Source: a virus (lineage: Duplodnaviria; Heunggongvirae; Uroviricota; Caudoviricetes). Taken from it: DNA of 58,025 nt. The stretch is from IMG/VR virus record IMGVR_UViG_2859821903_000003, positions 1 through 58,025 of that record; one strand, 5' to 3'. This document shows positions 2,491 to 18,641 of this stretch, in pieces (the stretch's first letter is position 1; each line of letters begins with the position of its first letter). The position numbers and the translations under genes were made by a program. The notes beneath the pieces were generated by a model, which was not told the DNA's origin, made no database searches, and saw nothing but the letters and a program-made list of their open reading frames with translations.

Positions 2491-4152
2491 TTACACCCCG
2501 CTAAATTCTTCCAGTTTCTGGCGGTGGCTGTCGCTTATATCAAAAGCAAAATCCTCATGCTCTGCCTGGAATGTACCAAACGCCATCAGCGCCGCCACGC
2601 TCGGGTCTATCTTGTTCGGTGATTTTTTCTTGTTCGGCTTGATATTGGCGTTCGCGTCACTCTGCATCACGACGTTACTCATCGACCAGGACAACACCGG
2701 ATCGCCACGATGCACAATCACCCTGCGGTTAACAAAAACTTCGAACGATTTCGCCGCCGGACTTAATCTGAGGTAGGTTTGCGGGAACGGCTCCACCTCA
2801 AAACCTGCCCCCTGTAATTGCGTTCTGAGATGCGTGGCGTTCCACGTATCAAAGCCCACCAGCCTGATATTAAATTTCTCCGCGTCCTGCATGATGTCAT
2901 CTCTGATCCGGTCGTAATCAATGCAGTCGCCAGGCGTTGTGCGTATCCAGCCTGCTTTAGCCCACTGACGATAGATGGCGCGGTTTTTATTGGCGGGGTT
3001 CTGTAGCTGGAACTCCGGCAGATAATGACGGGAAACCAGCATAATGGTTTTACCTACCGGAAAGGCATAGCACACGCTGGAAATATCGCTTGTGGATGAT
3101 AAATCCAGCCCCGCGTAACACTCCTAGCCGTGTAAATCTTCCTCCGTGAACGTTCCGGCACACTCAGCCCATGCGCCGTTACCCATCCACGGGGTAGTCC
3201 CCTGACACCAGATATTAAATCGCTTTGTCATCATCTCCACCCACTGCGACGGAATACCCCGCGCTTTCTGGATGGTTGAGGCCAGTTTTTCACGATCCAC
3301 GGAAACATCAATATTAGGGTTCGCCTTTATCCACATCGCCGGATCATCAACCTCGTTTTCGTCGTCCAGTTCGTAAATCAGTACAAAAATTGAATCGTTA
3401 ACCTCTTCGCCGTCCAGGATCTGGCAGCAATAATCATAGTGCTGCTTACAGGCTGAAACGACGTTGCTGCCTGATGTGGTAATGGCAAATAACAGCCCTT
3501 CGGGACGTGCGCCCATCCCCAGCTCAAGCGCGGAATAAACGCCGTTATCGGGGTGCAAGTGGTATTCGTCCACGATGGAAAGGCTGGGGTTTGTTCCCTC
3601 GATGGTTGCCGCTTTTGCTGCCAGCGGCTTTAACAGGCTGTTGCTTTTCGGGTGTATCACCTTATGCGCCTGAATATTCACCCGCCTGCGTAACGGTCGG
3701 GATAAAAGGCACATCTGACGCGCATCATCAAAGACGATCCGCGCCTGGTCACGGCTCACCGCTGCGGTGTAGATATCCTGCTGACCGTTCTCCATAATCA
3801 GAAACCAGTTAGCCAGAATCGCGGCGGTCGTTGATTTCGCATTTTTGCGCGGCACTTCGATAAAGGCGCTCGTATATTTGCGCCGTCCGGTGGCCTTAAC
3901 CTTAAAGCCGAGGATGCACGCAAAGGCGAACTGCTGCCACGGCTCCAGCTCAATGGGTCTGCCACGCATCGGCCCTTTTACGTGCGGGCACACCCTGGAA
4001 AAGGCAATAAACCGATCCACAACCTCACGATCGAACGTGTAAAGGGGGCTTTTAAGGTCTGAAAAGTACCGTTTAACGGCCTGTTTCAGCCGTTTACAGG
4101 CCGGAATTTTGCCCGTTTTTACGTCTTCTGCGTACTTATTCCAGGCGGTCAA
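2491..4152 (-). pseudogene. Terminase large subunit, interrupted by in-frame amber (TAG) at 3124-3126
   Basis: ORF 3124-4152 is the terminase ATPase-like N-terminal part and ORF 2491-3075 the nuclease-like C-terminal part; both are in the same frame, separated only by one TAG. Confidence 0.75.
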
Positions 4153-9402: not shown

Positions 9403-9813
9403 TCAGAACGGAATATCATCACCGTAAGGGTCATCGCCTCCCGCTGGTGGCTGATTACCCTGTGTGCCTGTGGTCTTGCGTCGGCTCCCACCAGGACGTG
9501 CCGCACGGGCACTGATTACGCTGTCTGCAATAACCTGATAACCCTGCCGCGTTTCCCCGTTCTGTCCGGTCCACTGGCTGACCTGCATCGTGCCGGATAC
9601 GCTGGCAACGTCGCCTTTTTGATGTTTAGCCAGGAAGTCGGCCTGCTTACCAAATGCGATGACCGATAGCCATAACGTCGCCTGTCCATCCTGAGCCTGG
9701 CTGCATGGCAGCGATACCGCCATACGCGCCAGCGTCATCGGTGTACCCTTGCTGGTCTGTTTTACCTGCGGGTCGTCCACCAGCCGCCCGTAAGCTGCAA
9801 TTTGTGCTGTCAT
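9403..9813 (-). CDS. ssb: Single-stranded DNA-binding protein
   Basis: OB-fold-like N-terminus, Gly/Pro-rich linker and acidic C-terminal tail ending DDIPF. Confidence 0.8.
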   Translation of the reverse strand: MTAQIAAYGRLVDDPQVKQTSKGTPMTLARMAVSLPCSQAQDGQATLWLSVIAFGKQADFLAKHQKGDVASVSGTMQVSQWTGQNGETRQGYQVIADSVISARAARPGGSRRKTTGTQGNQPPAGGDDPYGDDIPF

Positions 9814-9822
9814 ATTGCCACC

Positions 9823-10128
9823 TCAGTGAAGCGATCCGGCGTTGTTCTTTTTCATCTCTTCCATCATTTTTTCAGTGAGCATTACGCACTGAAAACCCAT
9901 GTTTTTGATGTCCACGGGCTTCATGCCTTTATCAGTGGATATCACAGGAAGAATATCCTGATACACATCGCGGTCAGGGTAACTAAGCACACAAAGCGCC
10001 CATGATGCCACGGGTGAGGATCCTTCGTCTGTTTCAACCCACCAGCCTGGTGTAGCTGCGCTTATTTGCTGAATCGTGATCCGTCCGTTGTGCTTGTAAA
10101 GTTTTTCACCAAATTTTGGTTCGCTCAT
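9823..10128 (-). CDS. Hypothetical island protein (101 aa)
   Basis: ORF in the replication-proximal operon; no motif recognised. Confidence 0.35.
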   Translation of the reverse strand: MSEPKFGEKLYKHNGRITIQQISAATPGWWVETDEGSSPVASWALCVLSYPDRDVYQDILPVISTDKGMKPVDIKNMGFQCVMLTEKMMEEMKKNNAGSLH

Positions 10129-10406
10129 GATTCCAACTCTCCGGTTTTAACGTTGATTGTTGTTACCTGTTCCGCTTCGGCAATCTCCCGTTCTGTCAGC
10201 GTGGCAAAGTTTGCCGCCGCCGTGGTCATGAATGCGCTTATCAGGTCGGGATGTTCCTTCGCGTATCCTTCCCGCGTGTGGCGGTCTATCGTTCTGATTG
10301 CCACCTTTAAGGTGTGCTCAGTCATGTCTAACGCTTTATATTTTGGCTCTGTTCTGTCTCTGCGTTTTTGGGTCATTTCTCGCAACCTCTCACTTTTTCG
10401 CCTCAC
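10125..10406 (-). CDS. Hypothetical island protein (start uncertain, possibly the internal Met at 10325)
   Basis: ORF whose 5' portion overlaps the iteron array. Confidence 0.3.
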   Translation of the reverse strand: MRRKSERLREMTQKRRDRTEPKYKALDMTEHTLKVAIRTIDRHTREGYAKEHPDLISAFMTTAAANFATLTEREIAEAEQVTTINVKTGELES

Positions 10407-10578
10407 TTTTTCAAGCGTCTCACTTCGTCGCAGTTGGGATTTTCGGTTTTTCTATGTGTATGTTTCATAAGTATTTTTTTACCCCTCACTTTTGAGGATG
10501 TATACAGGTCGAAAAGTGAGGGGGAGCGGGCTAATTTTGGCCCTCTTTCTATCCCCTCGCTTTTGCTCCTCACTTTTA
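10379..10578. repeat. Iteron array, CTCACTTTT-type repeats (at least 6 copies, one inverted); candidate island origin of replication
   Basis: Copies at 10379, 10393, 10410, 10486, 10570, a CTCGCTTTT variant at 10553 and an inverted copy at 10511-10524, immediately 3' of the replication gene. Confidence 0.5.
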
Positions 10579-11976
10579 TAGCGGCGCTACATCATCCCCA
10601 TCGATACGAATAACCCCATCTTTTTCCAGCTTGTACAGCCAGCGCCGGAAGTTTTTCATTTCATACCCCAGCTTTTTCATGTCATCACGTAACATCTGGA
10701 TCGTGCACTTGTCGCCGTTCTGTGTGCGTGAACGGATGCACCCCCATAGCGCGGTATGGTTTTCCGTCTTGTTCCCTGCCTCCTCGATGCGCTCCAGTTC
10801 AACAGGAGGGCGCGGATCATCCACCACCACCAGCGACGTGATTAATTCACCGTCAGCGTCGGTAAAAAGCTCCACCACGCGTAAGTCATATGCGGCTTCT
10901 TTGAGTTCCTCCGCGTCCTTCATTTTGGTGCATGAGATAACCAGCGCTTCGCTTCCTGCGTCCTCCCTGCGTATCCGGTATTCAGCATCCAGCGAAGCAC
11001 GAAATGCACTGGAACCGCGCGCGCCTTTCGTCTCATCCTTGCCGGAATGGTGAACCACCAGCACCGTGGCCCCTGTGCGTCGTTTCAGTTCGTCACAACC
11101 ACGGATAAACGCCCCCATATCACGGGAATCATTTTCATCATTCCCACCAAAGCAACGCGCCAGCGTATCCAGAATAATCATGCGTACAGGTTTACCCGTT
11201 TCCCGCTCCACCTGACGGGCAGCGATAACCATTTCATCAACATCAAGCGGGGCAGCCGGAAAGATGGGGCGGTTTACCAGATACAGATTTTTCACCTGCT
11301 CATCGTGCACAACCTCCCAGGCTTTTACACGACGCGGAACACCTATACCGCCTTCACCAACCACATAGAGAACCGCACCATGTGCAACCCTGCGGCCTCC
11401 CCACTGGCGACCAGTGGCAACATGGCACGCCCACGATCCGGCAAGGAATGATTTATAGGACCCGCTAGCCCCGTATATGCTGCATAGCGATACCGCCGGA
11501 ATAATCCCCTTAACCACGTAATCCAGTTGCGTGTCGTATCCGGTAGATCCAACGCTCATCGGTAGCGTGGTTTTTCGCTGGTGGTTTTTTTCTTCCGCCG
11601 GCTCTTTCCCGCGCACCCGTTCCAGGTATTCGCGCCAGTTCTCCCGCATATGGCTGTGCATCCCTTCGGGGTAATAATTCGCATCAGTTACACCCGCCGC
11701 CGCCAGCTTGTGCGCAATGGCATTAATATTTGATGGCCTGATGTGGCCTGCCTTGTACAGCCGGACACAATAGCGCCCCTCGTCGATGATTCTCAGGTCT
11801 GCCAGTTCATCCAGTTGATCATCAGCCAGCACAACGGGAGGCACATTATCGCCAGCCAGTCGCCCGTCCTGTTCCTGCCACTGTTTCGCATGTGCCCAGG
11901 CATCACTACCCGCAAAAATAATGGCTTCGGTCATCTTGTCGTAAGGCTGTTTTTTTAAGTTCGGTGCGCTTTTCAT
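10576..11976 (-). CDS. Replication protein, RecA-like/AAA helicase family
   Basis: 466 aa; Walker A GASGSYKS, Walker B-like LVVHHSGKDE; adjacent to iterons. Confidence 0.65.
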   Translation of the reverse strand: MKSAPNLKKQPYDKMTEAIIFAGSDAWAHAKQWQEQDGRLAGDNVPPVVLADDQLDELADLRIIDEGRYCVRLYKAGHIRPSNINAIAHKLAAAGVTDANYYPEGMHSHMRENWREYLERVRGKEPAEEKNHQRKTTLPMSVGSTGYDTQLDYVVKGIIPAVSLCSIYGASGSYKSFLAGSWACHVATGRQWGGRRVAHGAVLYVVGEGGIGVPRRVKAWEVVHDEQVKNLYLVNRPIFPAAPLDVDEMVIAARQVERETGKPVRMIILDTLARCFGGNDENDSRDMGAFIRGCDELKRRTGATVLVVHHSGKDETKGARGSSAFRASLDAEYRIRREDAGSEALVISCTKMKDAEELKEAAYDLRVVELFTDADGELITSLVVVDDPRPPVELERIEEAGNKTENHTALWGCIRSRTQNGDKCTIQMLRDDMKKLGYEMKNFRRWLYKLEKDGVIRIDGDDVAPL

Positions 11977-17165: not shown

Positions 17166-18392
17166 TTACTTCCGTTGCGCCGTTAACTCGGCAATACGGA
17201 CAATCACCTGCACCGCTTTTTCCATACCTTCCAGAGTCACAAACTCATGCTTACCATGATAGTTGTAACCGCCAGTGAACAAGTTCGGGCACGGTAATCC
17301 CATAAACGACAACTGCGCGCCGTCGGTACCGCCGCGGATCGGTTTCAGTTCCGGTTCAATATCGCAGTCACGCATCGCCTGCTGGGCGATATCGAGAATA
17401 TGCGGATGCTCAACCACTTTCTCGCGCATATTGTAGTAACTGTCTTCAATCACCAGTTCAATGTAGCAATCAGGATGTAACCCTTTGCCCACTTTTTTGG
17501 CGATCTCCATCATTTTACGTTTACGCGCTTCAAACTGTTTACGGTCGAAATCACGGATGATGTAGTGCATATCGGCCCGTTCAACGGTGCCTTTCATGCC
17601 CGCCAGGTGATAGAAACCTTCATAGCCTTCTGTCATTTCCGGGCTTTCATCCGCCGGAACTTCCGCATGAATACGTGCCGCCAGCGACAGCGCATTTACC
17701 ATCACTCCTTTCGCCGTGCCCGGATGAACATTGTTACCGACAATTTTGATATTGACCGATGCGGCGTTGAAGTTTTCAAACTCCAGTTCGCCTACGCCAC
17801 CACCGTCAACAGTGTAAGCCCAGCGGGCATCGAAGGCATCAACATCAAAATGTTTCGCCCCTTTGCCCACTTCTTCATCCGGGGTAAAGGCGACGCGAAT
17901 ATCACCATGCGGAATGTTTTTCTGTTGCAATACCGCCAGCGCGGTCATGATTTCTGCAATACCTGCTTTGTCATCGGCACCTAACAAGGTTTTACCATCG
18001 GTGGTAATCAACGTCTGACCCAGTAGCTGATGCAGCACCGGGAACATAACCGGTGATAAAACTTCATCGCCGATACCCAGCGCAATATCGCCACCGCGAT
18101 AGTTTTCAACAATTTGCGGATTAACATTTTTGCCGCTGCAATCCGGTGAGGTATCCACATGAGAAATAAAGCCAATCGCCGGGATATCGCCAGGGACGTT
18201 AGCCGGTAACGTCGCCATCAAAGTGCCCTTCTCACTTAAGGTCACATTGATAAGCCCCATTTCTTCGAGCTGCTCTTTCAGCAGATGCAATAACTTCCAT
18301 TGGCCTTCCGTGCTGGGAACCTGTCTCACCCCTGCTTTTGATTGGGTATCCAGAGACACGTAGTTCAAAAATCGCTCAAGTAGTTTATCCAT
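17166..18392 (-). CDS. pepT: Peptidase T (tripeptide aminopeptidase)
   Basis: Translation from [19 protein letters not shown]... matches E. coli PepT from memory; internal Met preferred over ORF-track start. Confidence 0.9.
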
Positions 18393-18641
18393 GTAGTCAC
18401 CCTCACTTTTTGTGACAACATTATTAAGAAGCAAGAAAAGACAAATATTGCGTCAGGTCACTTTTACCCCTGCAAGCGGGAATATTTATCAGCATTACCT
18501 TAATGAATATAAAGCTAAGCCAGTAATTCACAACAAAGATTGGCGATTCAAGCGGTTTGCCGTAGAATTACCGCCCTCATTAAGAGTCACCAAGGTGGTT
18601 AACCACAAACCCCGCATCGGTAAGCCATCCGTTGCGTTTAC

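Follow-up and report, generated by a model that had tools for sequence, protein, structure and literature searches.

According to PMC9371898, the replication origin (ori) of the SaPIs lies directly 3' of rep and consists of 6-12 short iterons, divided by an AT-rich centre on whose two flanks they point opposite ways. The SaPI Rep is described there as initiator and helicase in one: it recognises the iterons by its C-terminal winged helix and, with the melting of the AT-rich centre, loads itself onto the DNA. Rep and iteron specificity are matched in SaPI1, SaPIbov1 and SaPI5 (Ubeda et al., via Qiao et al. 2022, PMC9371898). [quoted passage not shown] 2018) is the only Gram-negative PICI origin that has been tested for function. 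Fig 2a of that paper is a drawing of iterons from 'several E. coli PICIs'; iteron sequences are absent from its text and supplements. Iterons and ori are unmentioned in the papers on capsid-forming PICIs (cf-PICIs) that we searched (bioRxiv 10.1101/2025.02.11.637232; bioRxiv 10.1101/2022.09.08.507074), and no text describing the origin of an island of the EcCIEDL933 type, the cf-PICI prototype (bioRxiv 10.1101/2022.09.08.507074), was found in the literature searched.

Here we analyse a gap of 199 bp at positions 10377-10575 of a window of 58,025 nucleotides, the whole stretch of DNA under study. With a probability of roughly 85%, and judging from the sequence, we take this gap to be the replication origin of a capsid-forming PICI. 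It separates rep (10576..11976, minus strand), which encodes an initiator-helicase of 466 amino acids, from the next gene, which starts at 10376.

From its gene content the island is a cf-PICI of the EcCIEDL933 kind at the phoQ/roxA site. The features that define cf-PICIs (bioRxiv 10.1101/2025.02.11.637232) are found in the annotation of E. coli FORC_042 and in the Pfam matches to capsid, SSB and integrase in the window. FORC_042 carries a 99.7%-identical locus between roxA/pepT and phoQ, with the gene order integrase, HTH regulator, Icd-like, small ORFs, DUF4222, helicase RepA family protein, two small ORFs, SSB, PerC, major capsid, prohead protease, portal, head closure, connector, HNH, terS and terL. 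Past the integrase end of the island, the FORC_042 chromosome holds the type III effector genes espK and nleB. In the window, the origin is followed directly by a small conserved gene of 83 amino acids that matches no family (10125..10376, minus strand), a 101-aa ORF (9823-10128) and the island SSB gene (9403-9813, Pfam SSB). The order rep, gap, small ORF and SSB recurs in eight further loci (L002-L009), and DUF4222 and the two small ORFs always accompany rep in the loci compared. Far outside the island, three adjacent tRNA genes (Arg-tct, Arg-tcg, Met-cat) lie at 37641-37890 on the minus strand; our guess is that they may belong to a neighbouring prophage.

An earlier note on this DNA had described at least six copies of a short repeat, one inverted and one variant, within the 200 bp adjoining the 3' end of a helicase gene, and had read them as the origin of an island. 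The repeats are present as described. On the plus strand CTCACTTTT occurs exactly at 10389-10397, 10402-10410, 10485-10493 and 10569-10577, and on the minus strand at 10512-10520, the inverted copy. To these five exact copies are added the variant CTCGCTTTT (10556-10564) and a seventh, partial copy, CTCACTTCG (10419-10427). The TAA stop codon of rep (10576-10578) is overlapped by the first iteron, and the span given in the note, 10379-10578, corresponds to the intergenic gap plus this codon. Only the wording of the repeat unit needs correction: because the genes lie on the minus strand, the iteron is better given as AAAAGTGAG, its form on the coding strand.

Read along the coding strand from the rep stop, the gap opens with two direct iterons (10577-10556), followed by a spacer, the inverted iteron (10520-10512), a centre with the sequence CCTGTATAC, a direct iteron (10493-10485), a stretch of 22.5% GC (10440-10479) and three further direct iterons (10427-10389). 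The rep-adjacent set (10556..10577, minus strand) thus comprises CTCGCTTTT and the CTCACTTTT copy that overlaps the stop codon, and the rep-distal set (10389..10427, minus strand) comprises two CTCACTTTT copies and the partial CTCACTTCG. Between them lies an inverted pair (10485..10520), whose arms of 12 nt, CCCCTCACTTTT and AAAAGTGAGGGG, are 100% complementary. The centre reads GTATACAGG on the plus strand at 10500-10508 and is invariant in an alignment of ten E. coli sequences. The GC content of 10440-10479 is the lowest of the region, and the AT-rich stretch around it (10439..10481) is presumably the DNA-unwinding element. The seven iterons surround this stretch, three on the far side (10389-10427) and four on the rep side. 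All have the same orientation, the far set being oriented as the near set, except for the copy at 10512-10520, whose partner in the inverted pair is 10485-10493; both lie between rep and the AT-rich stretch.

A chance origin of the cluster can be rejected. In the whole 58-kb window CTCACTTTT occurs six times exactly, compared with 0.61 +/- 0.78 expected from 100 dinucleotide-preserving shuffles of the window, and none of the 100 shuffles reached six. Five of the six copies fall within 190 bp; by simple scaling of the shuffle result, about 0.002 copies would be expected in a stretch of that length. The sole exact copy elsewhere (18402-18410) stands singly, with no partners, at the upstream end of an unrelated ORF (17166-18434, minus strand) and is taken to be a chance occurrence. 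We also considered helical phasing, as three of the copies in the window are spaced by 83/84 bp, but dropped it, as the spacings vary in other iteron classes.

Repeats between two genes could also be operator sites, at which a regulator, possibly Rep itself, controls transcription passing from rep to the genes for SSB, PerC and packaging, with no origin in the gap. The genes are all co-oriented, so transcription must cross the gap, the rep-distal iteron set stops only 13 nt ahead of the start codon of the next gene, and the GAGG of the iteron resembles a ribosome-binding site. However, neither a sigma-70-like promoter nor a coding-strand terminator was found in 10377-10575. An operator array would also leave the AT-rich core unexplained, and repeat sets on both sides of such a core, immediately downstream of an initiator-helicase gene, make up the layout of an origin. 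The co-variation of the iterons with the winged helix of the helicase itself, described below, also fits an initiator. We therefore regard a purely regulatory array as very improbable; a secondary regulatory role of the repeats, besides that of an origin, is possible.

The protein encoded by rep has three parts: an N-terminal domain of about 125 amino acids, a RecA-fold helicase core of the RSF1010 RepA type (Pfam AAA_25, E=2.4e-43) and a C-terminal winged helix. The sequence match to RSF1010 RepA in the PDB (1g8y) is weak, E=0.005, and RefSeq labels a homologue 'helicase RepA family protein'. Above threshold, no Pfam or NCBIfam family matched the N-terminal 149 amino acids, the C-terminal 71 amino acids or the two small ORFs downstream; this search gave a single hint, a sub-threshold match to MCM5_C, itself a winged helix.

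An AlphaFold2 model of Rep was built from an alignment of 29 database proteins. The model is mediocre overall, with a mean pLDDT of 64, but residues 400-466 (10579..10779, minus strand) are confident, with pLDDT 74-90. They are predicted to form three helices and then a beta hairpin (H405-419, H426-435, H443-452, E456-459, E462-465). Residue N442, whose codon is at 10651-10653, immediately precedes the third helix (443-452). Modelled alone, the C-terminal domain reaches a pLDDT of 77, and its confident fold matches are all winged helices: the MCM8 WH, the linker histone GH5, IdeR/DtxR and SelB. For these matches the TM-scores are 0.54-0.65, the rmsd 2.2-2.7 A and the probabilities 0.96-0.99, with weak E-values of 0.05-0.4, as expected for a domain of only 60 residues. 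The full-length model matched RecA, Rad51 and T7 gp4 cores only. We propose that the predicted winged helix is the iteron reader.

The N-terminal 125 amino acids (11602-11976, minus strand) are modelled as an alternating strand-helix fold with pLDDT 70-90. They share 62% identity with the start of the otherwise unrelated EcCICFT073 Pri-Rep (L093, 7242-7616), which is of the D5/SF3 type, and the same module thus sits on two different helicase classes, RepA-type and D5/SF3. No primase domain was recognisable in the window Rep or nearby.

Compared with the described PICI and SaPI origins (PMC6092414, PMC9371898), the gap in the window is likewise directly 3' of rep, with iteron sets flanking an AT-rich stretch, and the window Rep, like the SaPI Reps, is predicted to end in a winged helix. 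There are also differences. The motors of the SaPI Reps are of the SF3 or MCM-like AAA+ kind; the core of the window Rep is a RecA-fold AAA_25 domain similar to RSF1010 RepA and T7 gp4. All but one of the window iterons point the same way, which seems to depart from the SaPI description, and the inverted pair around the invariant CCTGTATA is an added fixed feature. No sequence homology between the SaPI rep-ori and that of the window is detectable.

The classical PICI EcCICFT073 shares with the window island the phoQ/roxA attachment site and the order DUF4222, rep, gap, small ORF, SSB and PerC, and its gap downstream of rep likewise holds iteron sets. Its Rep, however, shares only the first ~125 amino acids with the window Rep; it is a protein of 584 amino acids with D5_N/DUF5906/Pox_D5 domains (SF3), and its iterons are TCTACC/GGTAGA. 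Judged by these differences, the window origin is a different allele of the replication module. Since both helicase and iterons differ, the functional proof obtained for EcCICFT073 does not carry over to the window origin. The window allele may already be among those pictured in Fig 2a of PMC6092414.

The helicase core invites comparison with two other groups, the T7 gp4-like primase-helicases and RSF1010 RepA, which share the AAA_25 RecA-fold core with the window Rep but lack a winged helix that reads an origin. Distant members of the Rep family, for example one from Serratia (L055, 678 aa), have a Zn-ribbon primase and a Toprim domain ahead of the helicase, as in gp4; in the window Rep, the 125-aa domain, which matches no family, takes the place of this primase part. 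In the IncQ plasmids the RepA helicase acts together with a RepB primase, ssi sites and a separate initiator protein, RepC, which binds the iterons. These iterons are 20 bp long, whereas the window iterons are 9 nt and track the C-terminal domain of the helicase itself. With the IncQ (RSF1010) oriV the locus has the helicase core alone in common, and the annotation of the island at the FORC_042 locus lists no RepC- or RepB-like gene.

Ten diverged E. coli loci with 78-87% DNA identity over the query keep the fixed parts of the layout base for base, and they split into two iteron classes, CTCAC and CCCAC, in which essentially all copies of a locus switch together; there are two stray off-type copies, one in L005 and one in L007. 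In an alignment of twelve Reps exactly one column separates the classes, with Asn in the CTCAC class (N442 in the window) and His in the CCCAC class. The C-terminal 71-residue domains of L008 (His) and L010 (Asn) are identical except for this residue, and L007 and L008 are 99.5% identical over the Rep outside the C-terminal domain. One locus, L011 (E. coli O145 RM8843-C1, locus 245-1500), carries an IS3-family element inside the origin, between the inverted iterons at the equivalent of about 10498 in the window. The element cuts off the iterons beside rep from the far set and from the AT-rich stretch, and this island is therefore probably replication-dead.

A scan of one genome per species gave 80 further Rep loci with 52-72% protein identity, from Xenorhabdus, Photorhabdus, Pectobacterium, Serratia, Morganella, Pantoea, Kosakonia, Kluyvera, Yersinia and others. 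We compared the layout in the 300 nt downstream of each rep stop. Among the 81 Enterobacterales Rep loci the layout is constant, and is seen in 78, but the iteron core varies. Counted from the rep stop, two to three direct iterons lie at +4 to +30 in nearly all 81 loci, the inverted copy at +45 to +62, a TATAYAC-like centre at +60 to +77 (in most loci and in all iteron classes) and the direct copy that pairs with the inverted one at +75 to +92. The GC minimum, measured over 40-mers, lies at +92 to +105 in most loci of E. coli and Xenorhabdus and in many of the K class; across the family, three to five direct iterons follow at +136 to +198.

The iteron core tracks the Rep residue ahead of F-x-R-W-L, which is N442 in the window. 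Helices with the motif KN go with the core GTGAG (27 of 28 loci fit), KH with GTGGG(G) (11 of 12), KS with GTGCGGC (all seven) and KK with GTGGGGG (33 of 34). The residue class thus predicts the variable base in 78 of the 81 loci, as A for Asn, G for His, C for Ser and G for Lys. The three misfits (L041, L086, L088) are the three loci in which no clear array was found. A further class found later, with the motif RKG (RKGF, Enterobacter cloacae), keeps the layout but uses an iteron of its own, (A/G)TGCGC. The pairing of Asn with adenine and of His or Lys with guanine would correspond to the usual contact preferences between protein and DNA. On a neighbour-joining tree of the helicase core, from which the C-terminal domain was left out, parsimony counts at least 10 changes of the residue and at least 9 of the base, and the match between residue and iteron is therefore not a single inherited event.

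Among these loci, that of Xenorhabdus beddingii (L013, NZ_MUBK01000002.1, locus 2584-3010) has two complete origin units, one behind the other, downstream of rep. GTGAGG iterons make up the first unit and match the Asn-type Rep of the locus; the second unit has an identical layout but is built of GTGGGG iterons, and the locus contains no His-type Rep. The second unit could be a relic of recombination or could serve another type of Rep as an origin. We considered that co-resident islands might need different specificities and dropped the idea, as there are Xenorhabdus and Pectobacterium genomes with two islands of the same class.

These patterns bear on the possibility that the gap is an origin but that a protein other than Rep recognises its iterons, be it a host factor, the product of one of the small ORFs or DUF4222, and that Rep is only the helicase, as is RSF1010 RepA beside RepC. 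The RepA-like core of Rep speaks for such a division of labour, as does the constant presence of DUF4222 and the two small ORFs with rep. Yet the single Rep column that tracks the iterons sits in the winged helix of Rep itself, it is the only difference between the winged-helix domains of L008 and L010, and the association holds across at least nine independent switches. As the co-varying column is in Rep itself, we give very little credence to a separate iteron-binding protein. The co-variation of the iteron core with residue 442 instead argues strongly that Rep binds these iterons.

The ori and the 3' end of rep match 1071 of 5426 complete E. coli genomes, about a fifth, with 368 of the 1071 at 99% identity or above, many of them O157:H7. 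A megablast of the rep-ori region against a phage collection gave no match, and tblastn gave only relatives of the helicase core with less than 60% identity, none of which covered the C-terminal domain except for one Salmonella genome record. The rep-ori is therefore not a known phage module. It is found together with an HK97-type capsid, a ClpP-capsid fusion, a lambda-type capsid with decoration protein, or terS only. The block of DUF4222, rep, ori and small ORF thus occurs in PICIs with different morphogenesis modules, which indicates that the replication module has been swapped between island families.

This distribution also weighs on the idea that the repeats are a cos or pac site, recognised by the terminase of the island. 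The island packages its own DNA with terS, terL and HNH (bioRxiv 10.1101/2022.09.08.507074), and hence a specific site must exist. The array is, however, about 6 kb away from terS and HNH, and the same array with rep is found in islands with unrelated packaging modules. Because the rep-ori is shared by islands with four capsid/packaging modules, and the iteron class follows Rep and not the packaging module, we consider a packaging site extremely improbable, and we keep to the interpretation of the gap as an origin.

One complete island with the module has been deposited in circular form. CP018459.1 (L098, K. pneumoniae pKp_Goe_795-4) is deposited as a circular 'plasmid' of 16,971 bp and consists of a whole capsid-forming PICI, with int, regulator, Rep and iteron ori, capsid, adaptor, terS and terL. 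Its Rep has an S-class helix, its iterons are ATGCGGC/GTGCGGC, and the rep-ori is its only evident replication module. The record is circumstantial support for an episomal life of islands with this module. It also carries a 3.4-kb gene annotated as tail tape measure protein, unusual for cf-PICIs.

Taken together, the observation and the interpretation of the earlier note are both supported by comparison at the sequence level: the repeats adjoin a RepA-type helicase in a PICI, follow the layout of PICI and SaPI origins, and co-vary with a residue of Rep. The most likely mechanism, by analogy, is that of the SaPI model. Upon induction of the island, Rep would be produced, and its C-terminal winged helix would bind the AAAAGTGAG iterons, with N442, at the N-terminal end of helix 3, reading the fourth base of GTGAG. 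Several Rep protomers would assemble on both direct-repeat sets and on the inverted pair, flanking the stretch of 22% GC. This stretch, at 10440-10480, would then melt, and the RecA-fold helicase part of Rep would load itself on the single strands as a ring, followed by priming. The island SSB would coat the opened DNA, and the copying would be left to host enzymes.

A broader reading, for which we see even chances, joins these points: a single residue of the recognition helix would set the specificity of the origin, with N reading A, H or K reading G, and S or G going with C-containing cores, and islands would re-target their origins by one amino-acid change together with a concerted change of the iterons. 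The RecA-fold (SF4-like) helicase would then have converged on the design of the SF3/MCM-type SaPI Reps, with a helicase, a C-terminal winged helix and 3' iterons, and L013 would be replicable by two Rep types. If this code is true, an N442H exchange should shift the preference of Rep from iterons with GTGAG to those with GTGGG.

The gap at the 3' end of rep is just where a specialist would look for an origin, and the view of how these islands replicate is unchanged, as the locus fits the SaPI/PICI model. What is added here is the class of the helicase, RecA-fold AAA_25 instead of SF3 or MCM, and the pattern of specificity of one residue and one base. If our reading is correct, the finding locates the origin of the capsid-forming islands of the EcCIEDL933 type, which are present in about one fifth of complete E. 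coli genomes.
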